This document shows positions 20,738-64,000 of a stretch of 64,000 nucleotides of DNA, in pieces. This DNA comes from Psammoneis japonica (Eukaryota): positions 1 to 64,000 of the forward strand of contig QPGO01000213.1 of the NCBI GenBank assembly GCA_008632985.1. The letters run 5' to 3'. The notes beneath the pieces are model-generated. The model was not told the DNA's origin. It saw only the letters and a program-made list of their open reading frames with translations, and made no database searches. Position 1 is the first letter of the stretch. Each line of letters starts with the position of its first letter. The translations under genes and the position numbers were made by a program.

Positions 20738-21011
20738 CCGTGATTATCATAGAAAATCTGTGCCACAGATTTTGGTTCAAAATTAGTACAGATTTTCAAG
20801 GATTCCGGAGAAATAGATACAGATCCTCAAAAAGTATAGATTTGCACTGATTCTGCCAAAACTGGATTTGGGTTTTCTCAGATTTGAAGAACCCCTCCCC
20901 TGCTGGGGTACAGATCCCAGATTTCCGTTCAGAACAGGCACAGATTTTCTGAAGCCCTGAAAAATAGGTACAGATTCTGATTTTGGCACAGATTTTCTAT
21001 GACAATCACGG
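20738..21011. mobile_element. MITE with 28-bp TIRs and a TA target duplication (Tc1/mariner-type)
   Basis: Left end TA|ccgtgattatcatagaaaatctgtgcca (20738-20765); right end tggcacagattttctatgacaatcacgg|CA (20984-21011); many internal ACAGAT motifs. Confidence 0.85.
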
Positions 21012-26938: not shown

Positions 26939-27328
26939 GACGCGTTCCAGGTCTAGGTGGGACCTCGCACTACTGCACTGTGACATCGACAGTTTTTTGA
27001 ATCACGTCGTATGTCGCGCACGTAGATTTCTACGTGATTTTTTCGATATTTTGTGTCATTTTACGGTACACTTATTGAGCGATCTGTCCAACAACTTTTG
27101 ACATTTTTTGTTACAGCGCGATTCTATAATGTCTTAAGAATCGCGTAGGGCAGGCGCATTTGCAGAAACGTCGAGTGGCAAGAGGCATAATTGCACCACA
27201 AACTTGGCAGTTCATTTGATGTTGAAGACAAACAAATCCATTAATTAAATTCTAGCACTGCGGAGCTCGCACGTAGAATTCTACGGGCCCAATGTCACAC
27301 GGAGTCCCACCTAGGACTGGAACCCGTC
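26939..27328. mobile_element. 390-bp MITE with imperfect 25-bp TIRs and a CCAA target duplication
   Basis: gacgcgttccaggtctaggtgggac (26939-26963) pairs with gtcccacctaggactggaacccgtc (27304-27328); CCAA at 26935-26938 and 27329-27332; interior is TA-rich. Confidence 0.8.
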
Positions 27329-27759
27329 CCAAGCCGGTTTGGCAACTGAGAAGGCCACAGGTGCTTGTCATGTCGGTGCCACAGTTTTTGTGTCCAAGCA
27401 GTGTTCCTCGGTGTTGCAATTCATCGTCGTCATGTGAAAACGTTTGGCCGGTGTCTCACATGACATTGACATGCACGGAAGCCGCAGGTGGCATGTGACA
27501 CTTTCTAGTCAGCACAATCTATTTTTGCCGCCCTCTCGTCCCATCGGTTTGTCAAGCTCTGGACTGCCGCAGTCAGTGGCATCTAGTTTCGACGCCCTCT
27601 CGGTTTAGCAAGCTCTGAACCACTGTGAAGCTTTGGCAAAGAGGGACGTGTTGGAGCCAGTTGAAAGAAAAGAGGAGCACTTGAGAAAGCAAGGAGTTGA
27701 GAAAATGTGCCTGAAGCAGTCGCAACACTGCGACAGTCACAGGCATCACACTACAGTCA

Positions 27760-33736: not shown

Positions 33737-34237
33737 CTTGAAGGTAGATACAATGATCGTAGGAACCGAAAGCAACAACAACAGCAACTACGCCGCTAGC
33801 TAGCTAGTCTACAACGCAATAATGACAGCGTCACCGTTTTGGAGTTTTCGATCGTTCCATCTCCCGAGCGCCGGCCTCGGCGACGTTATTTTTGAACAGA
33901 AGTTCGAAGATGTAAATGGATTAAGTATACTTATATAGAAATCCAACTGGCCGGCTTATGAACGTATACAAAAATATATTGATTTTCAATCATTTCTAAG
34001 TCCTGTATAATAATATTATCTATAGATACTCACTTATTTCAATTATGATTATGGCCCATAAAGCTTCTACGAATAAATCAAGTATGTAGAAAAGCTATGT
34101 ACATTACACGCAAGGCACGACTATCAACGGAAAAACAAATATTTTTTTAGCACGAATCAACGTCGTGTGTACCGTAGACTACGGCGTGCAAGGAGCCTGT
34201 GCGCGACGCGCCGCCCCATGCATCTCATGCATTCACC
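33737..34237. promoter_or_regulatory. Conserved divergent intergenic region, copy 1
   Basis: Shares blocks with 55098-55560 (ttccatctcccgagcgccggcctcggcgacgttatttttgaaca; tatagaaatccaactggccggc; ggcacgactatcaacggaaaaa); lies between head-to-head genes. Confidence 0.6.
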
Positions 34238-36298
34238 ATGTCCATGTTGTCACTTTTGGAAGTGCTGCGACGACGGAAAATGACGACGACACCCGGCGCT
34301 GTGCCTCCTCAGATCCTATCTGCGTTGGAGGAGCTTCGTACACCCTCGAGCTGCTCAAATTCAGCAGAAGCGGCATGCGAGCTTTTCGAATTCTGCAATG
34401 AGCGGAAGGACAAAATTCCTCAGTCGCTCACCCAAGCCGGATTTCTTGAGACAATCATTGGTGCAATGGATCACGATGGGCAAAGCAAATCCTTTTACGT
34501 GTGTGTCATTCTTGTGATCCAAACTTTCATGAAGTCAAACGAAGACAACACAGAAGAATTCTTTGAAAAGGGCGGTCTCAAAAGAACAGTGTTTCTGATG
34601 GATGCATTTGTCACGGACGAAATCATTCAGACGGCGGGAGTTCAATGCCTCTGTTACCTTATGTTCAGAATCAGTGAGAAGTTCGCGGTTGAAATGGGGA
34701 CAAGAATCATGGAATGTGTTGTCAGAGCGATGGAAATTCACAAAGACTCAGCCTCGATCGCTGATTTTGGCATTGCAGGTCTAGTGAAGGCATCGGACTT
34801 GCTGCAACATGCGTTTCGTAATGATTTGATGCTTCGGTGCAAAACATGTCTCGAGCATTTGCTCCCAAACCATCTGCCTGATGTTGAGGGATGTGAGGAG
34901 AACTGTTCGCACTTGCTTGAGGAGTTTGACAAAATGCTCTTTCTCCGTCGTTAGCCAGAGAAACTGAGCAATTCATCTCTCAGTGCGTCGGAGGCCACGC
35001 AGCTCTTTCATGCTGTCGCATTGTTTGTTGCCAAGCCAGGCATGTCAGGAGCACTAGTCGGCGGCGGATTTTTCAAAATGGCCATTGCTTCATTGAATGA
35101 CGGTGGGCGGACCCGAGAGGTCTGTGAACAGCTTTGTGTGATGCTCACTGTGTTCATGGGCCTCGACGACAAAGGCAAGGGTTGCACGGAACAAATCCTT
35201 CGCATTGGCGGCCTCGAAAGCGCTCTTTGTATCGTCAACAGTTTCCCAAAAGATGAAAGGTGTCAGAGATCGGTGCTGGAGCTTTACCGCTTTTTCTGCG
35301 TGAATGGCACAGATGCAAAGAACGGGGCGGACATTGCGAACACGGTGCTCGAAAGCGCAATCAACATCATGAGCAACCATGAAGACTCGGCGCTTGTCTT
35401 CAGGCTATCTTGCCAGGCGGTTTTTGAGGCATTGCTTGTTCTTGACTTCTCTGTCAATGACGACGCGCTCTTTGACCAATGCATCAACTGCGTTTCCACT
35501 GGGGTTGCGAAGCATTGGAATGACAATGAATCTGTCGGAGTCGGTCGATGTGTGCTGGAAGGTTTGATTGGAGTGGACGCTTCAAACGAGGTGTTGGCAA
35601 AGCACTCTATGTCACATTTCACTTCCCAACTAGAGGAACTTCGTCATCCATCTCGCAATTCCGTGAAGGCGCTCGCGGCCGCACGGGAGCTTTGCTCCGC
35701 AATCGGCGCGGAAAAATTCCCCCTGTCCCTTGTCGATTCTGATTTTTTGGATGTAATCACCCATGCAATGAATCACCTCGGCCAGTCCAAAAGTTTCTAT
35801 TTTCCTTTGTTGATGATCCTTGTAAATCTCATTCATCTGGAAGACGCAACTGAGAAAATCGTTGAGATGGGAGGCGTCGCAAGATTGCTTGGTTTTATGA
35901 AATCCTTTGTGAACGAAGAGACATGGCAGTTGAATGCTCTTTACGTCATCCAACATTTTGCTTCTGAGAAGGGCGGTGCCTTTGCTGCTGCCATTGTCAA
36001 GAACGTCACAGAGGCAATGCGAGCCCACAAGGACTCGACAAAAATCTACTCCGCGGGTTGTAAGGCACTTGAGCAATCGTTGGAATCGATTGGATGGTGT
36101 GTTGAAGATGAAAAATTGCTCAAGAGAGTTGTGGACTGCGTTTGGTGTGGCATTGCAAATCATCCCTACGACGACGACTTGCAGTTGCGAGGTCGTAAGC
36201 TGCTGCACGTGTTGGTTGGAGATGAGGCTGCCAAAGAAATGATTTCATGTTCTGAGCATCGTCATTGTGCCGATGCTCACTGCAGTGCCGCTGCTTGA
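34238..36298 (+). pseudogene. Armadillo/HEAT-like helical repeat protein with three long repeats and one in-frame TAG
   Basis: Repeated LEELR.PS...GQSKSFY...GG units; ORFs 34199-34954 and 35021-36298 are in the same frame, separated only by TAG at 34952-34954. Confidence 0.65.
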
Positions 36299-37219
36299 GA
36301 GGTGCAGTTGTGAATTCTGAGAATTCTTTCGGATTTTGAAGTGGATTTGTAGTTTTTTGTCCTTGACCAAGACAAGTTACGGCGCCCAACTGTCCCTTCT
36401 TGATCTCTTGTCCATTGCCGGCACAGGAAAACAAGGATCAAGATGGTCGTGCATCCACAGCAGAGAAACGCGTAGAAATCATGCCAGAAAAAAATCCCAA
36501 CAATTTTCGTTTCTTTTCTCTTTGTTTGTCATGATCAAATGAGTGCATTTCTCATTGCAATTGACGGTGCACTTTGATGCAAAGTTCAGCATCCTGGTTT
36601 GAGGACTTCACAATTGGGAACACAAACAGGCACGGATGCGGAAAGCAGCAATTCGCTTGAGCATGCGAACTGCTGCAAGAAAGTTTTCTGTCTTGACAAG
36701 TCTTGAAGAGAGAATTCGAGGCCTGCAGTGCTGCTCTGGAGCAGCAGCAGCTCTCAAACAAAATGTGCACTGTGCAGTTATGATGGTCACATGCACCGTG
36801 TGGCAGCAACAACCTCATTTGTTGTTGCTGTTGTTCTGTTCGACTCCCGAGGGCTGATTGTGTGGTGCAACTCCGAGACACTCGGAGATCGAAAGGTTGA
36901 GGTGTCCACACTGCACGGCACTGCAAGATCTTGATTCTGCAGCCATTTTTTCAGGGGACGATGTGTCCTTTGCATCAACCTTTGGTCTTGGAGGCATGCA
37001 ATGCCCATTTGTGTGTGTGTGNAATGCCCATTTTTGTGTGTGGGGGGCGTGTGTGCCAACCTCCTTTGGGCACACATGAACACTGGGCAGCTGTGCCAAT
37101 GACAAAGATGTCAAGGTTTCAGAGAAGAGACTTCAAACCCGCTTGTCTAAATTGTGGCACACTTTGCCTTGAAGAGGCAGGTGGAAGGGTTTTCTGCTGC
37201 TGCCACCCACAAAAAACAT

Positions 37220-37620
37220 GTGTGTGCTGCACAGATTGCTGCTGCGAAGCACACCAGATGGGGTCATTTGTTGGCTGTTGACCAGCACACCCAGTGCCAC
37301 CACAGGGCTCACAAGGACATGCCAGAATGTTGGCCAAGCCAGTGGCTGAGAAAAAGAAGGTTTCTGAGCTTCTGAAAGGCATCTCTGAACCCAGATTGGA
37401 AACCAGGAAGAGTGTGGTGGATGGAAACCACACCAAGCTTGTGGGCTTTGAGGCTTGCAAGCAGCACGTCAAAGCTCTGGTCAAGAGTGCCAAGAGCCAG
37501 CACAGGAGGGCCAAAACTTGCACAACTGCCTGTGTTGGCCAACATGAGAGCAACTGACATAGAAAGCAAGGTGGCAAGAAAGGTGCAAAGAAGGAAACAC
37601 CTGGGATTGGGGCAGGCTGC
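37220..37620 (+). mobile_element. Ty1/copia (CoDi-type) gag remnant
   Basis: EKKKVSELLKGISEPRLETRKSVVDGNHTKLVGFEACKQHVKALV resembles the CoDi gag pattern KKV..FL.GI.D..L...K..V...KL..FE.CQQY (Tyr appears as His). Confidence 0.55.
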
Positions 37621-38549
37621 TGATGAGCAATGAGGCCGGCTCTGTCTGCTCTGCGGCTCCAGTGCATGCATGCGAGACCCCCTCATTTTTTTGGAATGCT
37701 CTGCATGGCAGAGTCTTGCACAAAACACACTTGCAGATCTAACAATGATCAATTGCACAGCATCAACAAAGAAGCCAGCACCTGCACCACCCAACAGATG
37801 TTGTCAAACTCATTGTAGAAGCATGCCAAGGTGCACTGGAATGGAGAGAATCGGCAATCAGTTCACTCCATTTCATCCAACGCTGAACCATCCCCAGTGC
37901 AAAATCATCACTTTTTTGGTTGGTGCTGACATGCTTCATTGATTGTCATCATGCACTTGGCTTTGTTGCACCTTGCAAGCCTTGGTGTGGAAATGTGTGT
38001 GTCTTGAGTGGTTGTCTTGTGGTTTTTGTCGTAAAATGGTTCTGTGATTTGTGAGAATTGACTTGCCAGACATGTGCTCACTTAGAGATGGGACTCTTTC
38101 TTGTCATGATGCAGGTTCTCAGCTCACACAATGCCAACAATGATGGTCAATGCTGCAGTGGATGCAGCAGAACCATCTTTGCTCTCACATTGCCTGCTTG
38201 TTTTCTCATGCTTGTGTGCTGCTTGATGACAGAGCCTTGACTGCCTCAAGAAGCCCCAAACCAAGCAAGATTGAATGTGGCAACAAATGCAAGGAGGAGC
38301 TGTCTGTGCAGACCTGGCCAATTTGTTCTTTCCAGGGGGGGGGGGAGGAGATTGTGCCAGTCCCGATGAGAATCACAACCAGCTCAGTGAAGTGGGGTCA
38401 TTCAAGCAGTTGTCAGATCAGAGCTCTTGTCTTCCCTCTGTCTAAAACACAGAGGTGAGAATCTTGTTGTTGTTTTGGTGCACAGGGTGCACCACATTTT
38501 CATTTTCCCTGTTGTGCTGACACAACACATTGTGTGTCTTCAAGGTCCA

Positions 38550-39250
38550 CTTTAAACTGTTGCAACCCGGAGAATCGCCCAAACTGGTGCCCTGCCAGTG
38601 GTGAATTTGATTGCTGCAAAGTTTCCTGCAACAAAAGCACTGTCTGAATTGAGCATTGATGATGGAATGGACGGGCACCGGTTCTTGCATGTCCTGTGGC
38701 AACAATGATCCACACTGCACCCAAACTGCAGGCTTGGTCCCAAATGTGGGAATTGCAGATTGGGCATGAGAAAGTTTGTGAAATGCAGCCATCATCGAGA
38801 AAAAGGCAAAACCTGGAGGCTCATTGCTGTCAATGGCACAAGAGAGGGTGAGCTCATTTGGGAGCACGGGTGAAGTCATTGACCAAGAAACAAGAAAGAA
38901 ATGCCTTGGAACATGGGCTGGATCATCCAAACAACCCCCATTGCTGCATGATGCATCTTGACACCAGACGGCACATTGATGCCATAAAATCCTGCAGGAA
39001 CATGGCTCCTGGCAAATTTCTGTGATGCAACCACCATTTTGATGCAAAGGATGTTTTCAATGTCAAGGCACCTTGTCGGGAAGAGAGTGGGAGGAAAACA
39101 GGAACAAGAAGTTGCAAGAGTGCACTTTGAGCATGACAAGAAATTTCTGTTGGACCTTGGCAAAGACAAAGCATGCAGACATTGGTGCATGTTTCCGATC
39201 TTGTGCCAGGCACTGCCAAAGACAAGACCATTGCGAGTGGACTGCAAGAT
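38550..39250 (-). mobile_element. Ty1/copia RT-RNase H remnant
   Basis: Fragmentary KIGNMH (DIGNAY-like), LLPQDMQEP (LPPNMPEP-like) and NSDSAFVAGN...FTTG (DSDFAG...STTG-like). Confidence 0.4.
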
Positions 39251-39499
39251 TGCAGTCAAGAGTTTGCAGTGAAAAGAAGGCTCTTCTTGTGGTGCATTGT
39301 CATTTTTGGGCTGACTTTGAGTGCCAATTAACAGCAAGAGCAGTGCCAAAGCACCTTGCTGTCTCTGCTTTGGCAAATTACAAAAACAGAAGAAGTGCAA
39401 GTGCTGCACATTTTCACTTTCCTGAATGTTGTGTGCTGCATTTCTCAAACACACGTTGTGTTTCCTGAATGTTGCACATTGCATTTCCTTTTCCCAAAG

Positions 39500-40200
39500 C
39501 ACATTGCGGTTGAGTGGAATCTTTTCAAAACAATGGCAAAGGGAGACTGGCTTTCCAGCATTGGGAGCCAGTCATGCCAATGGTGGGAGTCTCTGCAGCC
39601 ATCTTAATTTGAAGAAGCCTGCTGGCAACAGCGGCAGCAGAAAGAGAAAACAGAAGCAACATTGTGAGCACAATGAAAGGCAATGGACTGTGGCTGCTGG
39701 CACAACACTTGCATCTTTTCTGCAAGAGCCTCCATTTCCAGGAGCTCTGCATGCAATGCTTTGGAATCAAAGATGATCTTTTCCTGGGAAGCAATGGCAT
39801 CGCTGATGATTGCTGCCCTCTTCTTCTCCAACTCAGCTTTCATGACAAGGCACTTCCTTTTGACCTTTGATGCAGCAATCTTGGTGTCCCTGTCCATGTC
39901 ATTGGAGGCCAAAGCTGCCAGCATTTGGTGCTCCCAGCAGTGCTTCATGTTCACAAGCCAGTGCCACAAGACCTGCTGCTGGTCCGGCAGAAATTCATCC
40001 TGGAGCTCTGCTTGAGATTCCTCCAAGTCAACGATGGTCTTGCTGATGATGGCTGCCTTCTTCTCAAACAACTCTGACTTTTTGATGCATTGTGTCCTTT
40101 CAAACTTCAATGGGGCAATCTTCTTTTCAACTGTCAACAAGAAATTCTTGGCATCCATGTCATGGAAGGGGGCGAGGTTGCCGGACAAAGTGTGAACACT
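39500..40200 (-). pseudogene. Hypermutated partial paralog of the 53966-55097 gene family
   Basis: Intron, second exon and downstream flank align with 53745-54360 (gctggcaacag..gagaaaacagaa..ttgtgagcacaa..caatggactgtgg..gctggca); donor GTAAGT appears as GCAAGT. Confidence 0.7.
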
Positions 40201-40220
40201 CATGGTGCACAGCACCGTGT

Positions 40221-40427
40221 TGGGGAAAGTCTCCAGCCAGCTGCTGGCTGAAGAATCTTGTGTGGAATTTGTGCTGAAAGAGTCTGTCAATCTGCGTGTC
40301 AGGGGATTTTGGTGAATGCTGGACAGACTCGTCATCTTTTGTGCACACAACGATTCTGCTGGCAAAAGCCCCAAACGCACCAATGACCAGATTTTTTCAG
40401 CCAGCAGCTGGCTGGAGACTTCCCCCA
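40221..40427. mobile_element. MITE with about 32-bp TIRs, hypermutated copy
   Basis: tggggaaagtctccagccagctgctggctgaa pairs with ttcagccagcagctggctggagacttccccca; flanked by gtgt on both sides. Confidence 0.75.
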
Positions 40428-40451
40428 GTGTGACAACTCCTGCAGTGATTG

Positions 40452-41700
40452 CACCCCTGTGGCAGGGGAGAATGTGGTGATGTCACAATCATGTGGCAGT
40501 TTTGTGTCTCATTCATTGTGTTTTTACACAAATGATGTTCTCACATTCATTTGTGCATTTGTGCACAAATGCCAACAGCAACAGGAAACATCCTGAACCA
40601 CATTCTCCCCCAAAACTCTGACCACCAAAATCTGCAGGTGCTGTTGACACTGGTGTTGTCTTTTGCCAACAATGCCCACAATGAAGTGCCAACAACTCAC
40701 ACTTCTTTCTTTCTCACCCTGCTGCCTCCCAAAGATGCTGTCACAATGCAAACACTGCACCTGCATTTCAGTCCACTGGCATGCCCGATGCTGTTCCTTC
40801 TGCCCTTGCTGTCACAGGTGCTGTTGATGCTGTCATTGTTTTTCCTTTTTGGAAGGAGGACAATGGATGATGGTGGACCAGGAAACTGTCACCATGGCAT
40901 GCTGATGGACAAGTGTTGGTGTCATTGCCCTGCTGATGGACAAGTGTTGGTTTTGTTGCTGACATGCTTTCTGTGTTTGTTCATGGTTTTCCAGTTTTGG
41001 TTCAAGACATCTTCTGAAGAACTTGCATCCCGTTGGGCAAAGACACAGCAATCAACTTTTCAGGCATCAACACCTGTGTTGCACAAGTGTTCAGTGGGCT
41101 CTTTGCCTCCCTTTTGCTGGCCTGCAACATCAGTGGACATGAACAGCGCCTCTTTGTTGGCTCTTGAGTTTGGATTGATCTTTAGAATGTGTGCAGACTT
41201 GTGGTGCAGCTCTCTGTAAATTAGAAACCTGATGACATTCAGACAGCAGGCACTCTTTTGCAGTTTTTTAGTTGGAGAGGTCAGCAAATTGGCATTTGTT
41301 TGCAGGCAACTTGGCAAGGTTTCAAGTGGTGCATGTGACTTGGACACCGCACTCCATTTGCCAGGACTGAGTCATTGTCTGCAATTCCGTAAGATGCCAC
41401 TCTTGCTGTTTGAATTCTGCACACAACATGCAATGTGCTTTTTTGTAAGTTGCCAAAATGGAGGCAGGCTGCAATGTGCTTTTGGTGAATGCTCACTGTG
41501 TTTGTCACTGTTAGACCTTCTGAGCTGGAACCACATTGACAGCCATGCTGCCACTTTGCATGCACTGGCACCTTCTCCACCTGTGCTCCATTGGCCAGGG
41601 CCTCCTTCATGTTGATGCGGCTCATCTTGATGCCTGTTGTTGGCTCTGATTGGCTCCGCTGGGCTCTGGGTGAGTGTCAATCACCTCCAGACAGAGGTGC
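40452..41700 (+). repeat. Repeat-family copy starting cacccctgtggcaggggag; inverted copy of about 48200-49250
   Basis: The first about 180 bp match 47494-47670; 40630-41700 matches the reverse complement of 48200-49250. Confidence 0.75.
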
Positions 41701-43109
41701 AACAACATTTCAAAAATGAAAACGACTTGTCGTGCAAAAAGTTTGAAAATTTTCAGCTGTTGCCATTCATCTGGCCATCACATGTGCACTTTGACCTTGC
41801 AGCCTCTCACTCTCTCGTCCTCTTGTCCTCTTCCTTTTCTTCACAAACTTGGAGAGCCACCTGTGTGACCAGACATGTGAAAAAAATGAGGCAGGGCGTG
41901 CCGGAGAGGATGATGGATGAAGAAAGTCAAAGATGTGCCTCCGGTGGGCAGGAATTCAGAATTTCCAAGGTGCTGGAAATTTGAAAAGGTGCTGATTTTC
42001 TTTTCAAGTGCTGATTTTGAAAGGCACAAGTGCAGACAATCATTTGACGGCATGGCATCTGGCATCTGGCATCATGACAGATTTTCCTGATGCGAACACT
42101 CTCGCCATGACCTGCAAACATCACCAACCACTGGAGAGGACCCACCACCCATTGGCTGCAGCAGTCACCTGGTTCCTGCTGTCTTGCTCTGTTGGCATTT
42201 CAACCAGACACCTGACAAGCAAACAAATGCCATTCATTGCACTGATTGACCAAGCAACCACTGTCCACAAAATGGCGGCCCACAGAGCACCTTGCTCTTG
42301 CAGCTCTAGAACCTGTTGATTGCCGCATCAACCAGCGGGTGCGGCTCACAGTCTAGAACCCGTTGATTGCCACAACAACCAGTGACCCACAGAGCATGAC
42401 CTGACTGTCACTGCTCCAGAGAATGTTTTGATTGCCACACGAACCTTTCCACCACTTGTTGCTCCCAGCAATTCTCAGCTGTCATTGTTCTTGCAGTGGC
42501 ACTTGGTCACTTTGTCAGAGCTTTTGAGCTGCAACCCTTGACTTCTTCCTGGAGAGGGGCAGCATCACTCACAGGTGGCACAACAGCACGACTGCAGTTC
42601 ATTGATTTTTGTGATGAGCACCATGTTTGCCCCCCATGGTGGATGCTCATGCAATTGCTGGTGGGTTCACAGTGCACTCACACACCACACATGTTTCTGC
42701 ATTTTGGCACATGTGATTGGCGGCAGATTGCGACACATCCATGCACTGCAGCTCTGCTTGAAATGGACATTTTGCATTCATGGTGCAGCAATTTTCAGGA
42801 TGATCTTTGCGCATGCAATGCAAAGGGCGGACAGAGCAATTGATGGTTGTTTTCATGGCTCTCTGCTCCAGAGCTGGAGAGCCTGCTCTCTCTCTGCCGC
42901 AGAGCTGCCACTCTCTGCCAGAAGACACTGTGATTGCATGCAAAACATGCCAGGACAGATGTTGCAATTTGTCACATGCATCCAGACACATGGCGCATTT
43001 TGACAATGGCACATTGATGTCGCATGTTGATGCATTTTGACAAGAGCTGTTCTTTTGCCAACCGAACTCATTTCAATTGCCAACCCTGCTCATTTTGATT
43101 GCCAAAAAT

Positions 43110-43625
43110 TGGCAATTGAAATGAGCAGCATTTGAGCTTGTTTGAGCACATTTGAGCATGTGTGAGCAATTTGAGCACATTTGAGCAAGGACATTTCAGC
43201 GCACAATCCAAATGGTGATGAACTGTGAAACCTTCCGTGTCCCACTGTTGGAAAGATCGTGCACACCAGCAGTTGCATGTCCTCCTGTGAAAGTCCTGCC
43301 AGAAATTGAAAACCTTGCACAACAGCCAATGGATGGTTGCCCATGCAATGTCTGCCCCTGCAGCTCTTTGCGTGCTGCGCTCCAGGGCGATCAACAAGAT
43401 GCGCTTGGCCTCAGCACTGTGCGTGCCCATTTCTCTTCTTCTTCATTTGGCGCTGTTGTGTCTGTTGGTCAAGGAGAATTCAAATGAGCAGCATCTGAGA
43501 ACAATGATTCAAATGAGAAGCATTTGAGCACAATGACTCAAATGAGCAGCATTTGAGCAAATGAGCAGCATTTGAGCCTTTTTGAGCACATTTGAGCACA
43601 AATGGCAATGATTTGAGCACAACTG
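43110..43625. repeat. Two clusters of 10-12-bp TTTGAGCACA/AAATGAGCAGCA repeats (possible transposon subterminal repeats)
   Basis: Visible at about 43115-43200 and 43480-43620, upstream of the pogo-like transposase. Confidence 0.65.
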
Positions 43626-44039
43626 GTGATGACATCAGCAAATTGGTGATGAGAAATAAATGCAAATTTTTGCATTTGAACAAATGTTCATGCTGCAGAA
43701 TCCAACGCAATTTGACGCAGAGCCAAGAAATCCAGACCTGTGAAACTTCAAATGCTCCATTTTGACACCCTTTTGACACTCGCAAATGAAAGATCTGATT
43801 GCGCTGGCCAGGAAAAAAATTTGCCCGACTCCAAAATTCCATGTCGTTGTCATTTATGCACCTCAAAAAATGTTTCCTTGTGACTGTTGATGGGATTGAT
43901 GTTGCACATTGAGGCAATTTTTTGTCACACGCAGAAACAATGCTGACACATGCGCAGGACACCACCAAGATTTGGCACCTCATTTCTTTTTCTAAGATCA
44001 ACCATGGCACCACCTTTGAAGCCTCCAAAAATGCAAAAA

Positions 44040-45560
44040 GATGCAAAGAAGGCCAAGCTTTCTTTTGCAACTGACTTCTTCTAAAAAAACATCGTGGTCA
44101 TCCAAAGAAGAAAAAAGTGGCACTCGCAAAGGATGCTGCAAGCAGCACTGCCAGAATCAACAAGGCACTTTCTGTGCCCAAGACAACAAAGAACTGGGCT
44201 GCCAAGAATGCTGCAGCAGCTGAGAACAATGAAGACAAGAAGCGCAAGGCATCAACAGATGGCAGCAAGAGTGATGGGTTCATTGCAGCAAAGAAACCAA
44301 GGATGAGTTGGTCCAAGGAGCCTCATCTGTCAATCATGATGGGCATGGCTTGGCAAGAAGGACCCAGCTTTGTGACAGCAATGGAGAATCTCATTCAACA
44401 GAAGCATTTGCCAGTGTCATTGGAGTGCCAATCATCACCTTCAGAAAGTGCATCAATGGCGACCCTGCAAAATGACATCAGATTGGCAACAGCCTTGGAA
44501 GAAAGCCAATTGTCAATGTGACATCCCAAGAGGTGATTGCGCAATCAATTGCCAAGCTTGAAAGAGCCAATTGTGGACTTTCAAAAACAGAATTTGTTGA
44601 TCTGGTTGAGCAAGTGTGCCCAGATTTAAAAAGCCACAACAGTGCAGCCAACCACTTCTGAAGGACGGTGCAGCCAAATCATGCAGAAACCATCAAGAAG
44701 AAAGAGCAAAAGGCTCAGGCAACAACAACCAAATGAAGTGCAGCCACAATGGATGGTCGATGTTGGTGGTTTGTGGAGGTTGAGAATGCTTCAAACTTTC
44801 TCAGGAGCAGGAACGTTGGTCGCTGTGGGGTGACAGGCAAGCTTTTTGGCAAGGTTGTTCAGCATTTTGTTCAGGTGGGTTACGAGTCTTGCTGCATTGT
44901 GTCAGATGGCACCGTCTGTGTTGTCTGTTCTCTTGGTAAAAAGAAACATGAGAAAATCTTGCACAACTCTTGTGTGTCAATGTTGGTTTGTCACACGGGT
45001 TCTGCCCCTGGATGCCAGGCCCCCCCTGTTTTTCTTCTTGCTGGTTTGAGGAGGCATGCAGGGTCATGCACCGATGTGCATCTTAGAAAGCTGGGTGCTG
45101 CCAAAGGTTCCACAATCATCATGACCCTGGCTGCTTTCATGACAGAAGAAGCACGGGCAAAACAACTCCCACTGCAGCGTTGGGTTGCAGAAATGCTCAT
45201 CCAAGGAAAGCAGCAGCCAACAACCTGCAGTGGCAGACACTGGAGACACTTGATGGGTTTGGTCCGCACTTCTCTTCATTGGAAGCCATGGAATGCCATT
45301 GGAACAACAATGTCATGTTGTTGAAAGAAGAAGGTGATGCATCGCATCATGCCAATCAATCACATGATCAACTGGAGGCAGCCAGTGACAAAGATCTCAA
45401 GCGTGACAGGCTTGGGTCATGTCAAAGCACTTGGATGATGAGTCTGTTGCAGCACTGGCATGACAGAAGACAAATGTCACATCCATCAGGCCATGGCTGT
45501 GATGACAGCTGCAGCAACAACAAAGACAAAAGTTTGCAAGCCCAAGGCTCCTGCAGCATG
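44040..45560 (+). mobile_element. pogo/Tigger-type (DDE_1) transposase pseudogene, hypermutated
   Basis: KKKHEK, PVFLLAG, GSTIIMT..AFMTEEA, LDGFGPH, LLKEEGDASHHANQSHD (Tyr appears as His in the NQxYD-type motif). Confidence 0.7.
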
Positions 45561-45926
45561 TGACTGTTGCACACATGTTTGCAATCATGTGTTGTTTGTG
45601 TGTCAATCGTGCCACAGTCGTGGATGCATGCAAAGGACAGAATGATCACACAGAGTTGATCGGATGTCGAAAATTGCAAACACAATCAATTGACGATGTT
45701 GACATCTTGCGTGTCAACAGCAATTGCACCCGGACAATCTGTTGTCATGAACATTTTCTCCGAAAGGCCTTTTGTCTGCAGAAGCAGTGCAGAAGCTTCA
45801 GGCCATTGAGAACTCGTTCGGAGAAACCAAAAATCACAGAGCAAAATTTAATCTTGCAATTTTCACTTTTCACACTTGATTCTGCTTTCATTTGCACTTG
45901 TTCTTCGAGCACAGTGCACTCCCAAG

Positions 45927-46810
45927 ATGGGGGGAGTTTTCTCTGTCGGTGCTTCTGAAATGGTGGCTTCAACTGGCGGGAAACCCAAGGCTGACTGGTC
46001 CGGGCTGGACCCGTCTGCTGCCCCCAATCTGACGTCTCTGAATCAGTGTTGCTCTCACCATGTCTCTTCTGCTCAGAAGAGGTTTGCAAAGAAGGGAGAT
46101 CTCGCAACTTTTGAGAAAAATGTCTTGAAACATCTCAAGGACTGTGGATTGGACACAGCGACTTGCCTGCGGGACCCCAAGGACTCAACTGCAATGATGT
46201 CCTTCATTGAAGGACATCCTCGTTGCTCCAAATTGAGTGTCACTTGCCTTGTTGCACCTCAACTTGCCAAGCATGATTCCTGCAACACCTCCAATTGCAG
46301 GGGCACTGCTGAGTTTCTCAAGAACTTCATGTTGGAGACTGGTCCTGCAGACCCTCCAGTTGGATCTGGAGACAGAAGAAATGGATTGCTTCCTGAAGGT
46401 TTGGGTCACTCTCATTTTGATTCTACAGAGCACATCTGTCAAATGCTTCAAGCAGGTCAAGAAGCAGCAGGAGAATCTCAAGCCCTCTCAGTTTGCCCTT
46501 CCTTTCTGAGCTCTGCTGTCTAAGTTCAAGACTGCCACTCAAGAGTTGGATGTTGTGGGTCAGCATGACAACAAGTTGACACTTGCCTTGGTCAACTCAT
46601 GCTTGGGGGCTGCCTGTGTCATGGAGAGAACAAACAGCAGTTCAAGCACACTCTTCAAGCAATGAAGGAGGACTTCATTAAGGCACTGGTTGAGACAGCT
46701 CACAAGAAGTCCAAGACAGATGCAAAGCAACACCTTGCATCCAAGAACCTTGCCTGCTCCCAATGCGCTTTGGATTTTGAAGCAGATTTGCAGCTTTTCA
46801 TCCTTGAGTG
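45927..46810 (+). mobile_element. Ty1/copia CoDi-type gag remnant, hypermutated
   Basis: TGGKPKADWSGL, HLKDCGLDTATCLRDP, GQHDNKLTL; positions expected to be Tyr read as Cys or His. Confidence 0.7.
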
Positions 46811-47493
46811 AGACAAATTGCAGCTCCCAACTGTCCCTTCTTGATGTCTCCTTCTCCATTCTAGGATGACAAGGATTGAGATGGCTCTGCATCCATCCAA
46901 GGAGATGCATGTTGTGCTGTGCCAGCTTGCAGCCAAACAATGAGTCTTGGTGGCCCCGCGTCAGTGCCCACAAAATTGCCCCTTTGTGGGGATGGCCACG
47001 CACCAATCTCCATTGGGTGCACACAAACATTGGGCAGCTGAGCCAATGACAAACATGCCAAGGATTCAGAGGGGGATTCAAATCCACTTGCATCTCCTTT
47101 CTAGATTGCAGCACATTTTCTGTGCAAAACTCCACTTGGTTTTGACTCCTTTGGCTTTGGCTTTCTGAGCACAAATTTTGAGTGCAGCTGTGTGCATCCA
47201 GAAGGATTTTGCAGACAGCTGAAGGTTGTGTTTTGTTGCTCTGTGCTTTTCACCCTCTTTCTCATTCCAGGTTTTCTTGCAACAGCAGCAGTGGGAACAG
47301 AAAACAGAGGCAAGGTTTTGTGAGCAGCAATGAAGACTGTGGCTGCTGGTGGCACAACACTCACACCGTCTTTGCATGCTGAGAGTTGCTTTCATGCTGG
47401 GCCTGCGCCATTTGGCGCATGTAGAATCTCGTGTAGAAATCACGTGCGCCACTGTGGCGCAAAATTTGTCACGCCCTGAACTCCTGCCTGTTC

Positions 47494-49616
47494 CACCCCT
47501 GTGGCAGGGGAGAATGTGGTGATGTCATTGTTGCGTGGCAGTTTGTGTCTTGTTCATTGTGTTTTCACACAAATGTGCTTGCATTCATTTGTGTGTTTTC
47601 ACACAAATGCTGACAGCAGCAGGAAAAATCCTGAACCACATTCTCCCCTAAAACTCTAACCACCAAAAACCAAGGGCACGGAAGCGCACTTTTTGAAGAC
47701 AGCGCACACACCAAAACATCACGCGTTTCGACAACTTGACCATGACGACCTCCCGTTCTTCATCCCCCACACCACCTGATGCACACCCACCTGCCGTTCC
47801 TGACACGGCAGTCTCTCCTGCATTGGCTGGTGCCGTCAAACCCGCTGTTGTAACCCAAACACAGCACATTTGCGATCCTGAAGTTTGGGCCCATTTTCAT
47901 TGGATCCAAAATTGACCGTGGCTGCCATTGCCGCCATTTGTCATTGAGTGCTGCAATCAAGCACAATGCAACAACAAGGCGAAACAACCCCACTCGTGCT
48001 GCGACTGCCATGGATGCAAGCAGGCCTGGTGGTGGCAGAGCAAGGCAATTTTGCCAGGATCAACAAAGGCATGGGATCAACAAGCACCAATGCACTGGTC
48101 GATGCTCCTTGTGTGGGCGTGGGCATGGCAGAGGACCATCTATGATGGGAGGCATGGTGACAACTTTTCTCAGGATGATTGTTCCCAAGCAGAACCTCCT
48201 CCATCTGGAGGTGATTGAGACTCACCCAGAGCCCAGTGGAACCAATTGGAGCCAACAACAGGTGTCAAGATGAACCGCAGCAACATGCAAAGGAGGACGC
48301 AGCTGATGGAACACGGGCAGAGAAGGTGCCAGCATGCAAAGTGGCAGCACAGCTGTCGACATGGCACTGGTTTTGAAGGTCTGACAGTGACAAACACAGT
48401 GAGCATTTGCCAAAAGCACGTTGCTGCCTGCCTCCATTTTAGCTGCTTACAAAAAAGCATGTTGTGCATCACATGTAGAATTCAAATGGCGAGAGTGGCC
48501 TCTCATGGAATTGCACACAATGACCCAGTCCTGGAAAGCAGAGCAGTGTCCAAGTCACATGCACCACTTGAAACCTTGCCAAGTCACCTGCAAACAAATG
48601 CCAATTCGCCAACCTCTCCAACTTGAAACTAAAAAACTGTGAAAGCATGCCTGCCATCTGGTTGTCATCAGGTTTCTAACACACAGAGAGCCACACAATG
48701 TGTCTGTACATTCTAAAGATTAGACTGCACTCGAGAGCCAACCAAGAGGCACTGTTCATGTCCATTGATGTGTTGTCCATCAGCAGGCCGTGGTTGTGTG
48801 GGTTTCCTGGTCCGCCGTCATCCATTGTGCTCCTTCCAAAGCAAAAACAATGACAGCATCAACAGCACCTGCGGCAGCAAGGGTGCGATTGACAGTGTCG
48901 GGCATGCCGGGGGCCAAAACGCAGGTGCGGCATTGGGATTCGTGACAGTGTCTGTGGGAGGCAGTGGGGCGAGAATGAAAGAAGTGTGAGTTGCAAGCAC
49001 TTCATTGTGGATGTTGTTGGCAAAAGACAATGACAGTGTCAACAGCACCTGTGGCAGCAAGGGCAGGAGCAACAGTGTTGGGCATGCCAGGGGGCCAAAA
49101 CGCAGGTGCGGTGTTTAAATTCGTGACAGTGTCTGTGGAGGTGGTGGGGCGAGAATGAAAGAAGTGTGAGTTGTTGGCATTTCATTGTGGACGTTGTTGG
49201 CAAAAGACAATGACAGCATCAACAGTGCCTGCGGCAGCAAGGGCAGGAATGACAGTGCTGGGCATGCCAGGGGCCCGAAACGCAGGCATGGCTTTGGAAT
49301 TCGTGACATTGTCTGTGGGAGGCGGTGGAGTGTGCAAACAACAGTGTGAGTTTGTGGCATCTCATTTTGCATGTGTCACACCCACGAGAACCGGAACAAT
49401 GACATCACCTGTTGTGTCAGTGTTGTTGGCAATGGCATCAGCAGGATCGGTGTCCTGGGAAGGCGATGGGGAAGAACCACGAGGCATCATCATGGTCAAG
49501 TCATCAAAATGCGTGTTTTTTGTGCGGAGAAAAGAGCTGCCAGAAGTGCGCTTCCGTACCCTCGGTTTTTGGTGGCGTGGTTTGAACACACACACAGCTC
49601 CCCTGCCACAGGGGTG
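47494..49616. mobile_element. Segment bounded by inverted cacccctgtggcaggggag termini (long-TIR element, or two copies facing each other)
   Basis: 47494-47512 matches the reverse complement of 49598-49616; extended inverted homology between 47660-47760 and 49470-49575. Confidence 0.65.
48842..49370 (+). repeat. About 180-bp tandem repeat, roughly 3 units
   Basis: caaaa(g)acaatgacag..caacag..cctg.ggcagcaaggg starts at 48842, 49021 and 49201. Confidence 0.9.
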
Positions 49617-49839
49617 CTCCCACTTGACTTCCGTGTCAAGCAATGTTGGTTGCTTGGCTGGATCCTGCAACAAGAACTCCGAGACACCCTTTTCCTTGGC
49701 GATTCGTCGAGGAAACATGAGAGTCATCTTTGCCTTTGTCAACACCATCAGCAAAATTTGCCATTCTGTCATCATGCCGGACTGGGGCAGTGGCTGCTTC
49801 AAATGTCTTGAAACAAAGGAATTGGTTGACAACTTTTGA

Positions 49840-52669
49840 GTGGGAAACCGACCAACACGAGAGCTCAGGCAACTGGTCATCAAATGTGGAGGTGCCACTT
49901 CCTGTGAAAGAAAACGCATGCTTTCTGCCCTTGCGATTCTTGGTGCAAGGTTTGAGGCAAACGATCATGTCGGCAAGGTCATTGATGCATGGGCACAGCC
50001 CATTCATTTGGAGAAACAGGCTGAGATGAAGCTTTGGCAGGAGGAACCAAAATTTGTGGCAAAATGTCTGAGCCTTGAATCGATGCAGAGTCAGTTTAAA
50101 GGGGTCTTTTCTCCTTGGTGGGATGCGACGCTATCTTCGTTTGACATCAAACAATGCTTGTCAGAGAGGTCAAATCATGAAAGTTGTGTTTTTGTTGAAT
50201 TGCTTGACATGGCCGTCGGCTCAGGATGCTTTGATGCTGCCATGTGGCTTCTGATGCATTGGAAGGCTCCGTCATCAAAGTCACCTGACATGTGGTGTCA
50301 CTGTAAAATCATGGAAACCGCACTGACCGGTTGGATCCACGATGACATGTTTGCCGTCGATGAGGAGACTCCTCCTCTCTACATGCATGGGGCAAAAGAC
50401 GTCATTGAAGAAACCATGGGGTCCGACTGTAATCCAGCCCACGAAAGGTCGAGAATCAACGAATTTTTTTGGGGTGTGGACTTGGGCGAAGGCGATCGAT
50501 TCGACCTTCACTCGGTTTGGAGAGAAATTCACAAGAAGGCCCCTGCGCATGAGGCCAATGAAGACAGCGAAATTTGGTTCGGTGTTCCACCCAAGATCTT
50601 CACCGCAATCAAAATGGCGTGTACATTGCCGCCGAGTGATTTCGAAGAATCCGGGCAAGCGAAGCTTTTGGACTGTTTTCTGGAAACTGTTTACGACGAA
50701 GACTCCAAATTCCTCTCGGCAGACCTCCCGAGCTTGGCAAAGTTCGTTGTGCTGGACCATCTCCACTTCTTTCAATTCCTCACAAAGCAAAGAAGTAGCA
50801 CAGATGAGACCGTCACTCAAAGCTCATTTCTTGACCTTGACATGCCACTTCTTTGCCCAGTCACCCATGTTTGTGGTTCGGATGAAGCTGACGACGCGGC
50901 CATGACGGACGATGAGGATGTCGAAAATCCATGCTCGATTTGTTTGGAAGCCATGGCCAACCCATTCAAGCTCAGATGCGGGCATTGTTTTCATCACAGA
51001 TGTTTTTTTTGCCATGCTTTCCCTGAGCTGCGAGACGGAGCTGCTGCATCAAGCTCGACAGATGGTGCAAATGAAGTGACCCACGAAGTCCTCTCGACAT
51101 TGCCGAATCTCTCATTTACCCTCGCTAAAGCGAACTGTCCTCATTGTCGCCAATCTGTCAAACCAAGCCTTCAAGAGGCATTTGCACTGAATTTGGCCGA
51201 TGGACTAATGAGGACAGACATGGAACGAAGAGAGCGCCCTTGTTCGCCTCACCTCGATCTTGCAAAGTTTCGAACTGGAATCACAGTTGGCGAATCGCTC
51301 TTAGCCTTCGCGGCATGCAGCGGTGCCATCAGCATCTTTCAGTGGCTCGTTTTGGATTCCGGAGTGAAACCTAATGACGTCTACGCTGGCGATGTCAATG
51401 TCATGCATTTCGCCGTAGCTCACAAGCAGGTCCTTATCCCCACTCCCAGCGCGAACCATGCAGTGGTTCGCCGCGCGAACTCACGAATGCGCGCGATTCC
51501 TGCCCCGAACCATCAAGTGGTTCGCGGCAAGCCAAAAACGAACCGATAGACGATGGGTAAAAGTGTAAAAGATAATGAGATATCTACAATAACATTACAT
51601 CAGTCGATACAGCAACGTCTGTTTGACAATAAGTATGCTTTATTTTAGTGGTTTACTATGTTCTTAAACTTCTCCGTACTGCTACCGTCTTGTTCATCGT
51701 GAGCCTCATTTTTCTGGTTCAATTTTGCATTCGACCCTCTGGTACAAATTACCACGTATATTTCTACGCTCGTCCTCCCGAACCACCTCATGGTTCACCA
51801 ATTCTACGGGGCTCCCGGTACTTATCTACGCAGCGAACCGCCCAATGGTTCGATATTTTTTTCTGGTACTGCCCTACGGTTGTTTCTACGGGGTGAGAAA
51901 ATCACCGCCAACGACCATGACGGTGATTTGACGGCGACCGAGCTCCACACACGAGTGGCGGCTGACAACATAATGCATTGATAACAATGGCTTTTTGCCT
52001 CTGTTAAAAGGTTGTATCTGTGTAGGTACTACTTTATTGTGTCAGTTGCGAGTTTTACGCTACGCAAGTTGCGAACCACTGAGTGGTTCCATTTTTTGCC
52101 CGAGTGGGGTTATCATACGTTGGCTGTGCCTTAACGGCTATTCATCCATGCTTTATGGTAGATTGCAAAGGAGTGCGTTCGATACTTTTGAGCCTTCCTT
52201 GAACTCTGGCACTTCGATGCATGATATTGATCTCAACCTTGATGACAAAAATGTCGCCAAGCGACTGCTATTTTGGAAACGAAAGTTTGGGCTCGCTTCA
52301 CTTCGAAGTGATAACGAAAGTTATGAGTACCGGTACGAAGAGCACGAGCTGGAGCTTCTCCACGAGTTGCCAAGTGACGAAGAAACTCATATTCTGGGTC
52401 TTCAGCGAGTGTCTGAGGACCAGAGTCCGATGCATTATCTACTGATGAATTCCTTGACACACTTTGAAGGACCTATGAGTGATTTACTTTTCAAGCTTTT
52501 ATGGTCTCTTGGTGTATCTGCCATGCCAGCCAACTGGTACCAGCTTGTACTTTCTTTGAGCGTGGACCCAACCATTCGTTCGAATGCCAAGGCGTTCTTG
52601 TCAAAAAGAAGTATTGACCCCTCCTCTGTGTATAACCTATGGGCAACTTCCCAATATTCTGCAAGATGA
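49840..52669 (+). pseudogene. RING-finger plus ankyrin-like protein interrupted by a piggyBac-like insert; 5' part hypermutated
   Basis: CSICLEAM...LRCGHCFHHRC...CPHCR. Removing 51438-52109 plus one TTAT restores HFAVAHKQVL-IIRWLCLNGY in frame. The start codon is uncertain. Confidence 0.75.
51438..52109. mobile_element. Non-autonomous piggyBac-like element (672 bp) with a TTAT target duplication
   Basis: TTAT|CCCCACTC...GAGTGGGG|TTAT; five internal GAACC-N7-GGTTC palindromes. Confidence 0.85.
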
Positions 52670-53965
52670 GGCACGCTGGGCTCTCAGGGTTTTCGAGACT
52701 AGCTTGGAGCCGGTGAACTCAGAAAGTCCCTGTACTCGAGAGAAAAAGAATTTCCAGCATAGCGACGTTTACGTCGCTTATTCACAAATCAGTTTCCGGT
52801 TCGGCTGGCAGGAAAGAGTAGAGAAACAGCCACGATAGACTTGGAGTCTTACGTGTAGCATAGTAGACCTAGATATGAAATAGGCTCACTTTACTTTCCA
52901 TGAAAATGTCGCTCTACATCACGATGCTTCTCTAGAATGCTTTGTCAACCTCAAAAACATAGTAATAATATACACTTGAAATCCATCGACGTGCTACTGC
53001 TAGTCCCCAGCAGATCCCAGATATGAGACATGCCGACACAGATGCTTGCACCGGTGTTGAATTCCTCCTGCTCCTGGCAAAAGCAAATCGGGAACGACTG
53101 TCACATGCAAACGAGTAGTCCGCCGAACTTTGAAAGGGGAGAGCTCTTATGTTGTACCAGATAGGAGCAGACGGAACGACGAGACTGTTTCAGTATCCAA
53201 TCAACGAGAACTAGAAGAGAAGGCACGGGAAGTACAGTCGGACTGTCGCAACAACACTGCTGCGAGAAAAGCTGGGAGAACTATGGAATTTGCAACATGA
53301 TCTTGCTAGGTCCGGGACGGGCTTTGGCCTTTGGGCACCACACAAAGTTCTTGCCGAAGCCGACCCCTCGCCAGTCGCAGCAGCAATCGACGTATGTTTC
53401 CAAGAATAAGAAGCGAAATCACGGAGACGGAGGGCTGTCGTATTGAATTGGCCGATTCTAAACCTGTTGTACATAGCTATCGACTATCGATTTGCTCAAT
53501 GTACGCACAATAGAACGTGTCTGACACAACAGTCAGAGCCCGCTAGAGTATTAACGTATTCCCTTTCCTCTTATCGTACTTCGAACATGTGGTACTAGTT
53601 TTAGATTCTAAACGTGTGGTGCACAATTCTTACCGGTATGCAAAGTGGCAGCACAGCTATCGATTTGGTACTCGTTTAGAAGGACTAGAGTAACGAAAAA
53701 CATAGTGAGCATTACCAAAAGCACGTTGCTACGCTACCTACGCTACCTGTCTCTATTTTAGCAAATTACAAAAATAGTATAAGTACAAGTGCCGCACATT
53801 TTGACATTCCCGAATATTGCATGTCGTATTTCCTGAATAATGCATGTCGTATTTTCCAAATACTTCGTCTTGCATTCTCGAAGGTTTCTCGTTGCATTCC
53901 CCGAACATTGCACGTTGCATTTCCCTTTCCCAAACACATTGAAAACGAGTCGTATCGATTCAAAA

Positions 53966-62759: not shown

Positions 62760-64000
62760 TATAGTTTGCTGTGAATAATCGCGCTCTCGCGCTGCGAGCT
62801 CTGGAGCAACTGGAGCGCAAATTCCCTCCGGGTGCTCTGAGTGCTGAAAGCAGGCAAAATGAGGTGATGACGACTTCATCGCGAATCACGACCAATCTTG
62901 TCATTGTGACATCATTTGCCGAGTGCGACCCCCCTTCCAGAGCACAAACCCACCCCAAAAGCTGTGCTTCACTCAGCCAAGTTTCTTGGCTGAGGCTCCT
63001 GTTGCTCAGGTTTTTGTTCACTGTGGTGCCTGGCCGATTGGCCAGAGAACCTTTGAGGTGGTGTGGGTCTCTCACTTCAGACAGCGGGTCTCCTGGCAGC
63101 AACAGCTGCTCTCAGTTTTGACCAGCCCTGCTCTCATGGCTTCAAGCCATGGCTTGAGATTTGAGTCACTCAAAAACAGCTCCAACTTTTTTGGCTCTGC
63201 ACACATTCAGCGAAGGAGAAGCAGGCCCAAGGGTTCTTGACACCCTCACCTTGTTGACTTTGCCCTCATCAAGTTGCGAGCCAATGTGTTGGCTGCTTCC
63301 TCTGTTGTCAGGTCCAGACTCATGCACCACCCCCTCATCACACCTGCTCCCATGGGAGACAGGAAATCTCACAGTCTTCTGTGCATGTTGAAGCTTGCAT
63401 GTCTCTCTGGCTCTGCTCATCTTCCAAAGTGAAGTGGCTGCCAGCCACTGTGCTGCTTGAGCTCCTTGTGAGTGTCGTGCTTCTGTGCTGCATTGTCAGC
63501 TTACATGCCTTGCCAGTCTTTGCACTGTGCCAGCAGCAGGCACAAAGAAAACAAAACAGAGGCTCAAAATCTTGTGCTCGTGGCACATGTTCTCTCTCAC
63601 CGCACAAGTGTTTCACAGAAAAAGCCTGCAGTCTTTGTGAGGGTTGCTCCTCTGACTCAACTTCCCCAGGAAGACAACACAGGCTCTCATCAGCAGACTC
63701 TCCTGTTGTCTTACAAAAAATCTCCTCTGGCCTGTCCTCTTTCTGCAAATGCCGCACTGAAGTGCTGAGTGCCTTTTTGGCATCTTGAGTTTCTTGTGCA
63801 GCAAGGTCTGGCCCAGAGCACGCCCCACAACAAAGGCTTTGCACAAGCTCTCTCAATCCTTGCTCATCAGCATGCTCCAAGAAAGCAGATGCAGCAGAAA
63901 GCTCTGCAGCTGTTGCAGGCAACAAGGATGTGTGTGCACCACAGGCAAAATGGCAAAAGGGTTGTTGTTGCCAGTCTTTGCAAATGACTGGCTGCTGAGT
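62760..64000. other. TpA-depleted degenerate domain (runs off the right window edge)
   Basis: TA is nearly absent after about 62780; overlapping Cys/His-rich ORFs. Confidence 0.85.

Follow-up and report, generated by a model that had tools for sequence, protein, structure and literature searches.

Near-saturated TpA loss in repeat-centred domains of a Psammoneis japonica contig is consistent with regional TpA to TpG/CpA hypermutation of DNA

Contig QPGO01000213.1 of Psammoneis japonica (Eukaryota; NCBI GenBank assembly GCA_008632985.1) was studied over positions 1 to 64,000 of its forward strand, a stretch of 64,000 nucleotides that is called the window throughout. Its gene content is eukaryotic, including open reading frames (ORFs) of MCM, Ipi1, TLDc, calreticulin and ArsP type, and its GC content is ~47%. 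The dinucleotide TpA (TA) occurs in the window as a whole at 0.40 of expectation, and dinucleotide observed/expected ratios (o/e) in 1-kb windows show that the deficit is uneven, being concentrated in discrete domains. Outside the domains, TpA o/e is 0.65, CpG o/e 0.98 and TG/CA o/e 1.15; inside them, TpA o/e is 0.03-0.17 and TG/CA o/e 1.35-1.82, and single 1-kb windows have a TpA o/e of 0.01-0.19 inside vs ~0.65 outside. Domain edges could be placed to within ~100 bp from the positions of TAs, which gives the following layout.

Domain A, 1..1040: TA o/e 0.06, CG o/e 0.36; truncated by the window start.
Domain B, 21000..29850 (right edge 29850-30170): TA dense until 20998 and again from 30174.
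Domain B, 21100-24000: TpA- and CpG-poor, with TA o/e 0.04 and CG o/e 0.26.
Domain B, 24000-29850: TA o/e 0.08-0.15; CpG near-normal, 0.70-0.74.
Domain C, 34180..51546: core at 37030-48700, with TA o/e 0.06 and CG o/e 0.24.
Domain C flanks: 34320-36500, TA o/e 0.17, CG 0.91; 48700-51300, TA 0.10, CG 0.67.
Domain D, 62777..64000: TA o/e 0.03, CG o/e 0.27; truncated by the window end.

The longest stretch without any TA covers 1303 bp (42354-43657) in the core of domain C and has a chance probability of ~1e-26 at the outside TA frequency of 4.5%. The sum of TA, CG, TG and CA is 22.8-24.3% per sub-domain vs 24.4% outside, a constancy that is expected if only transitions within pyrimidine-purine steps have taken place. 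GC content is barely altered inside the domains, because TA to TG/CA raises it and CG to TG/CA lowers it. The left edge of domain C is the start of an ORF (34178-34951) and its right edge is the TAG stop of another (49840-51546), and both edges adjoin TA-dense intergenic DNA. Self-BLAST of the window found no long terminal repeat or terminal inverted repeat common to the domain edges, as would be expected of a large element. As a check on the assembly, six read-derived contigs of 621-1868 bp inside the domains show 0-1 differences from the window, although they and the assembly may share a single source (three runs of one sample, 2946 pieces placed at 80% likeness). A single N, an assembly gap, lies at 37022 in the core of domain C.

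A first-pass annotation of this DNA had drawn attention to a short repeat in domain C, to a copy of it outside the domain, and to a third, mutated copy lying inverted at about 41.5 kb. BLAST and a three-way alignment (A1) locate all three.

48325..48460, + strand: inside copy; TA 2, CG 2, TG 15, CA 18; within a longer repeat, 48198-48771.
41440..41570, - strand: inside copy, inverted; TA 2, CG 0, TG 21, CA 13; within a repeat, 41127-41697.
53631..53770, + strand: outside copy; TA 16, CG 7, TG 6, CA 10; starts a TA-normal element, 53638-54348.

The domain in which the annotation had placed the 48.3- and 41.5-kb copies is real, with a TpA o/e of 0.01-0.16 per 1-kb window over 36001-50000 vs 0.80 at 53001-54000, around the outside copy. 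BLAST aligns 48334-48425 with 53638-53730 at 83% over 95 columns (E=1e-18), and 41471-41561 on the reverse strand with 53638-53729 at 79% (E=1e-12); the longer inside pair, 41127-41697 vs 48771-48198, aligns at 81% over 582 columns (E=3e-152), and the outside element 53638-54348 also matches inside pieces at 39359-39716. Among the 16 TAs of the outside copy, 3 fall in an insertion that only this copy has and 13 are alignable, two gap-disturbed sites having been read by eye. At these 13 sites the 48.3-kb copy reads TG or CA at 10, TT at 1 and TA at 2, and the 41.5-kb copy reads TG or CA at 9, TA at 2 and something else at 2. All of the substitutions listed at first pass recur in the alignment (tacc>tgcc, gtat>gcat, ctat>ctgt, gtac>gcac, gtaa>gtga, atag>acag and ctac>ctgc), except that ttac>ttgc also includes a 1-base difference in the length of a T run. 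The CG>CA change between copies that was also listed is present, with two polarised CG to CA sites.

Three sequences, here copies within the 64-kb window, polarise only those sites at which the two inside copies differ, and every site that can be polarised runs from TA to TG/CA. At columns 120 and 194 of the alignment, one inside copy retains the TA of the outside copy where its counterpart has TG; at column 147 an outside TA is matched by TG in one inside copy and by CA in the other. Every one of the 4 TAs that survive in the inside copies also stands in the outside copy, none being specific to the inside. In outside-vs-inside alignments generally, TG/CA stands inside opposite 17 of 25 outside TAs, whereas TA stands inside opposite 0 of 97 outside TG/CA, in counts that score two inside copies against one outside copy and whose sites are not all independent. 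Inside copies were also compared with one another: nine non-redundant inside-inside pairs (1680 columns, 84% identity) contain 46 TG:CA doubles among 374 aligned pyrimidine-purine steps, where 4.4 are expected from the per-site transition rate, vs 2 of 294 in five outside-outside pairs of the same identity (1475 columns, 84%; Fisher p=3e-10). The transition:transversion counts are 183:85 in inside pairs vs 91:142 in outside pairs. Because a TG:CA difference needs two changes unless both states arose from TA or CG, the copies were hit independently after their separation. The polarised sites, the inside-pair doubles and the outside-inside asymmetry thus agree with the first-pass proposal that TA is ancestral and TG/CA derived inside the domain, and column 147 and the 46 doubles provide the differing TG and CA outcomes that it had named as the mark of independent hits. 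Further, the inside copies have 6-7 changes in common beside 5-6 independent ones, which suggests that mutation may also have preceded their duplication. A diverged duplicate outside the domains (32960-34156 vs 54234-55556; 70-74% identity across high-scoring segment pairs) is TpA-normal in both copies, one of which abuts the left edge of domain C; thus, duplication alone does not trigger hypermutation.

The TG and CA outcomes are interleaved along the sequence (20 doubles, 12 runs vs 11.0 expected in a runs test), and in 500-bp bins no TG/CA strand skew exceeds |z|=2 and no strand-coordinated tracts occur. To judge from these distributions, both strands are struck equally. The nucleotides around a TA (Y, pyrimidine; R, purine) have a strong influence on its survival: the ratio of inside to outside TA density reaches 0.26-0.42 in YTAR, and falls to 0.06-0.22 in mixed contexts and to 0-0.06 in RTAY (chi-square 94, p=4e-21), with the following values for individual contexts.

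CTAA/TTAG: 0.42.
TTAA: 0.30.
CTAG: 0.26.
GTAA/TTAC: 0.22.
CTAC, ATAG, ATAA, GTAC: 0.06-0.08.
ATAC: 0.01.
ATAT: 0.

This ranking is unchanged in non-coding cores. Within Y-TA-Y, the gain of TG exceeds that of CA (6.1 vs 3.8 per kb in CpG-normal parts). If outside composition is taken as the ancestor, the pattern fits an attack on the A when its 3' neighbor is a pyrimidine (TAY).

A change of TA to TG or CA creates no stop codon: TAA and TAG become TGA, CAA, CAG or TGG, and tyrosine codons become cysteine or histidine codons. Reading frames therefore stay open, since such changes destroy TAA and TAG and create no stop in their place. Stop triplets are 87% TGA inside vs 48% outside, and long ORFs are abundant in the domains. 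For annotation this means that the domains yield many long false ORFs, TGA making up that share of the stop triplets that remain, as well as proteins rich in Cys/His and poor in Tyr, which call for caution. Four inside ORFs are supported.

25151..26767, + strand: ankyrin-repeat ORF in domain B; Tyr 0.2%, Cys 5.4%; TAG end.
34178..36298, + strand: two tandem paralogous ORFs in the left flank of domain C; same frame, with a single TAG between them; 31% identity over 210 aa; Tyr 0.8-1.1%.
49840..51549, + strand: RING-finger ORF in the right flank of domain C; Tyr 0.5%, Cys 4.0%, His 4.4%; domain C ends at its TAG stop.

Tyrosine accounts for 11 of 1812 codons (0.6%) in these four ORFs vs 113 of 3808 (3.0%) in seven outside ORFs, with cysteine at 82 (4.5%) vs 77 (2.0%), histidine at 69 (3.8%) vs 89 (2.3%), and NTA codons at 17 vs 128. 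A TAG stop is kept by three of the four (P=0.008, given 13% TAR among inside stops). The family of the tandem ORFs at 34178-36298 consists mostly of proteins of 240-260 aa, with 51 relatives at E<=1e-3, and has no Pfam match. At the protein level, no useful pair of paralogues was found between inside and outside regions, and Rfam and tRNA scans of the window gave no match. Over 50242-50862, within the RING-finger ORF, two contigs of equal depth (~61) were recovered, one identical to the window and the other with 76 letters and 50 gap positions different; the latter represents a second haplotype of the ORF or else a paralogue that has diverged. Outside the domains, a leucine-rich-repeat-like ORF (55479-57374) has a TpA o/e of 0.30 at 56001-57000 with normal CpG, and possibly shows the process at an early stage or in weak form. 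ORF 19502-20404 contains a 129-bp tandem repeat, perfect and of 1.9 copies, at 20000-20245.

Only the repeat-rich cores (1-1040, 21100-24000, 37030-48700, and 62780-64000) are depleted in CpG, to an o/e of 0.24-0.36. In the flanks of domains B and C, where the supported ORFs lie, TpA is scarce but CpG is close to normal (0.67-0.91), so that the TpA process can be separated from CpG decay. Judged by composition, decay of CpG to TpG/CpA is a second, separate layer in the repeat cores; in repeats, CpG decay is the usual outcome of cytosine methylation. The copy number of the repeats is evident from summed contig depths of 1000-16000 at 39756-41083, 45068-46395 and 47060-49715 vs ~60 for single-copy pieces. 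A short element of very high copy lies at 45633-45918, with a depth of up to 16400 vs ~60 and many contig ends at 45633-45695 and 45854-45918, and a 180-bp tandem repeat of 2.7 copies with 85% matches is found at 48841-49328 in domain C. A two-block pattern made from the repeat had 0 matches in metagenomes. Domain B also contains an insert resembling a miniature inverted-repeat transposable element (MITE).

26939..27328: MITE-like insert, 390 bp, in domain B; 25-nt terminal inverted repeats, 88% complementary; an inner 19-nt inverted pair.

The insert has a normal TpA o/e (0.71) inside the TpA-poor domain, and either arrived after hypermutation or escaped it. In the former case it would mark when hypermutation ended at this locus.

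The genes in the window point to a diatom affinity. For the MCM4 ATPase exon, the best matches in a protein database that includes MMETSP and EukProt are at 61-68%, and among the matches listed, every organism-named one after the first six (46-53% identity) is a diatom. In a maximum-likelihood tree the query falls among diatoms, on a very long branch (1.09 vs a median of 0.04, about 25-fold) that leaves its exact place unsure. For the TLDc ORF, most of the nearest atlas cluster is Bacillariophyta, although this is no more than a lead, and the Ipi1-like ORF has a best protein-database match of 25% identity. Six outside ORFs are uninterrupted over 1.3-2.5 kb. In the MCM4-like gene (15150-16610), the Walker A motif is broken by a 7-base tandem duplication at ~15678-15691 that shifts the frame, and a second frame change lies ~200 bp upstream; the gene may be a pseudogene, a divergent paralogue or the product of an assembly error.

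We hold with good confidence that the 48.3- and 41.5-kb copies are derived, that the 53.6-kb copy keeps the ancestral TAs, and that the first two lie in a chromosomal domain of DNA-level hypermutation from TpA to TpG/CpA. The pattern, its polarity, its dependence on context, and its edges are matters of observation; by analogy, we infer that the same kind of machinery may act here as in Bigelowiella natans (Mettrop et al., bioRxiv 10.64898/2026.01.13.699255, in part). TpA would become TpG by a change of A to G on the strand read, and CpA by the same change on the other strand. As read from the window, the process is limited to blocks of 9-17 kb with sharp edges, acts on both strands, and was probably active before as well as after the inside copies separated. 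The near-disappearance of RTAY sites and the better survival of YTAR would reflect a preference for A before a pyrimidine. The agent, as a guess, would most likely be an ADAT2/TadA-type adenine deaminase acting on DNA, which may be recruited to silenced repeat or foreign chromatin and may spread from there to neighboring genes, up to the next gene boundary.

Several points weigh against this account, or against parts of it. The process is read from the end state of the window sequence. At the 6-7 sites where both inside copies have TG or CA over an outside TA, three sequences give no polarity, and 7 outside-inside TG:CA doubles indicate that the outside copy is not a perfect ancestor. Comparison of the RING-finger ORF with a single 50%-identical homologue (P0001) shows histidine at one of four lost tyrosine positions. 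In the family of the tandem ORFs, two conserved tyrosine columns are kept in three of four cells, as scored for the 34955-36295 ORF on 33 of its 51 homologues, with lengths of 150-330 aa. The retention of these tyrosines and of the TAG stops hints that the inside genes may have been under selection while they were mutated. Foreign DNA as the target is unproven: repeats are present in the domains, but Pfam searches of 12+89 ORFs found no viral hallmark, transposase, reverse transcriptase or integrase there. The enzyme is a guess, and thymine-directed chemistry at TpA would give an identical pattern.

In that last version, the same in-place hypermutation would proceed through TET/JBP-type oxidation of thymine to 5-hydroxymethyl- or 5-formyl-uracil, which pairs with G and leads from T to C. 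TpA is self-complementary, so that T to C on one strand is indistinguishable from A to G on the other; the RTA or TAY preference is readable either way; and TpA-favoring thymine modification is known in dinoflagellates and kinetoplastid telomeres. The sequence holds no evidence against thymine chemistry, which we nevertheless consider unlikely, the only agent put forward so far being an adenine deaminase, for B. natans, which is itself a proposal. More improbable still is that the domains are foreign or mobile DNA that was already TpA-poor on arrival, through selection against TA, with a family consensus of TG/CA and no mutation in place. The high-copy repeats in the domains (depth 1000-16000 vs ~60) could have multiplied once TA-poor, and ankyrin and RING ORFs are common in giant viruses. 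The targets described in B. natans are integrated viruses (bioRxiv 10.64898/2026.01.13.699255). A composition fixed before arrival leaves unexplained, however, both the 46 TG:CA doubles between inside copies and the sites at which one inside copy retains the TA of the outside copy. No relative was found in three scans of viral contigs, made with three of the four supported inside ORFs by a method that detects close relatives only, and we know of no natural genome with a TpA o/e of 0.01-0.06.

Little credence can be given to the idea that repeat transcripts were hyper-edited from A to I by an ADAR-like enzyme with a 5' U preference and then reverse transcribed and reinserted. The change of A to G with a 5' T is the ADAR neighbor preference (bioRxiv 10.64898/2026.01.13.699255), and the inverted 41.5- and 48.3-kb copies could form double-stranded RNA. 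However, a retro-copy records one strand only, and here TG and CA alternate within single copies without strand runs; the depletion is continuous over 9-17 kb, including single-copy ORFs, and ends sharply; and a Pfam scan of the window ORFs found no reverse transcriptase domain. Moreover, a 3' purine protects in the window, and ADAR favors a 3' G. The mutations seen in B. natans occur in situ, within a region that is single-copy (bioRxiv 10.64898/2026.01.13.699255). The least credible alternative is the one that the first-pass annotation had itself set against its proposal, with the 53.6-kb copy derived and its TAs made from CA/TG by C to T changes as in repeat-induced point mutation (RIP). 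It can draw on the 6-7 sites at which the inside copies agree, but TpA near the outside copy is ordinary (0.80 vs a background of 0.65), where RIP would have raised it, and it is the inside value of ~0.05 that is abnormal. The sites that polarise all run from TA to TG/CA, and such a derivation would leave unexplained both the TG:CA doubles and a TA content close to nil over 27 kb.

If hypermutation of TpA in the domains is accepted, a broader claim can be made, which we put forward tentatively and with somewhat less than even confidence: that TpA-directed hypermutation occurs also in a diatom-lineage stramenopile, where it is near saturation; that it marks repeat-centered chromatin blocks and spreads into host genes up to a gene boundary; that the TAY preference points to a TadA/ADAT2-like DNA adenine deaminase; and that the process may be a widespread eukaryotic defense. 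If true, it would be a functional mirror image of RIP, disabling its targets by missense (Tyr to Cys or His) without stop codons. A second, unrelated lineage would turn an oddity into a class of genome defense and would give comparative genomics a target in deaminase or modification genes that co-occur with TpA-poor domains. A full-text literature search returned one report of TpA to TpG/CpA hypermutation, the 2026 B. natans preprint, and a search for a TpA signature in diatoms or stramenopiles returned none.

Among known systems, fungal RIP resembles the window in that repeats within a region are hypermutated by transitions at particular dinucleotides, with spread into the single-copy genes next to them. 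RIP changes C to T at CpA, however, so that TpA goes up, GC goes down and stops are created, whereas the window loses TA, keeps its GC about unchanged and cannot gain stops; its TA o/e of 0.04-0.17 and TG/CA o/e of 1.35-1.82 are the opposite of a RIP composition. The diverged outside repeat pair (32960-34156 and 54234-55556) is also untouched, unlike under RIP. Retro-copies edited by ADAR should each carry strand-coherent clusters of A to G, and the outcomes in the window are interleaved. Methylation-driven CpG decay of transposable elements resembles the apparent change of CG to TG/CA confined to the repeat cores (CpG o/e 0.24-0.36 vs 0.98 outside), but accounts for that layer only and not for TpA-poor flanks with a CpG o/e of 0.67-0.91. 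TadA/ADAT2-type deaminases, including adenine base editors, convert A to I (read as G) with a 5' T, as would be needed here, and their natural tRNA target is U33-A34-C35. A TadA-8e variant edits preferentially in a YAC context (PMC13109818, in part), whereas the window preference is for TAT at least as much as for TAC, and not for C alone; the window itself contains no deaminase gene.

The closest likeness is to B. natans, a rhizarian alga of the chlorarachniophytes. In mutation-accumulation lines of this organism, two regions, one of an integrated giant virus and the other of a virophage, received 231 of 302 new mutations; 230 of these 231 were A to G or T to C, and all 230 were at TpA; the genome contains 124 clusters depleted in TpA and enriched in CpA and TpG, and an ADAT2-like protein was proposed as the agent (Mettrop et al., bioRxiv 10.64898/2026.01.13.699255). 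The window shares with the system so described the TpA target, the TpG/CpA products, the action on both strands, the regional confinement, and the long-term cluster signature, and 21 of its 64 1-kb windows pass the cut-offs of the preprint, with qualifying runs at 21001-26000 (5 windows) and 36001-50000 (14 windows). It differs from the nucleocytoplasmic large DNA virus region of B. natans (Rho 0.45) in a depletion near saturation (o/e 0.01-0.1), and in targets that are repeats and neighboring ORFs without a recognizable viral gene. Further, B. natans genes average 8.8 exons of 159 bp (PMC12730881, in part), whereas window ORFs run uninterrupted for 1.3-2.5 kb and MCM4 groups with diatoms, which rules that alga out as the source of the DNA. 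A term search of the main text of the preprint, whose supplements could hold context, found no CpG co-depletion, TAY context, tyrosine loss, stop-codon point, paired-copy polarity or later insert. To the process described there, the window would add a TAY preference, both-strand action, separability from CpG decay, edges at gene boundaries, open frames with tyrosine erased, and a later unmutated insert, and its simplest reading is a second case of a known process, probably in the diatom lineage and near saturation.

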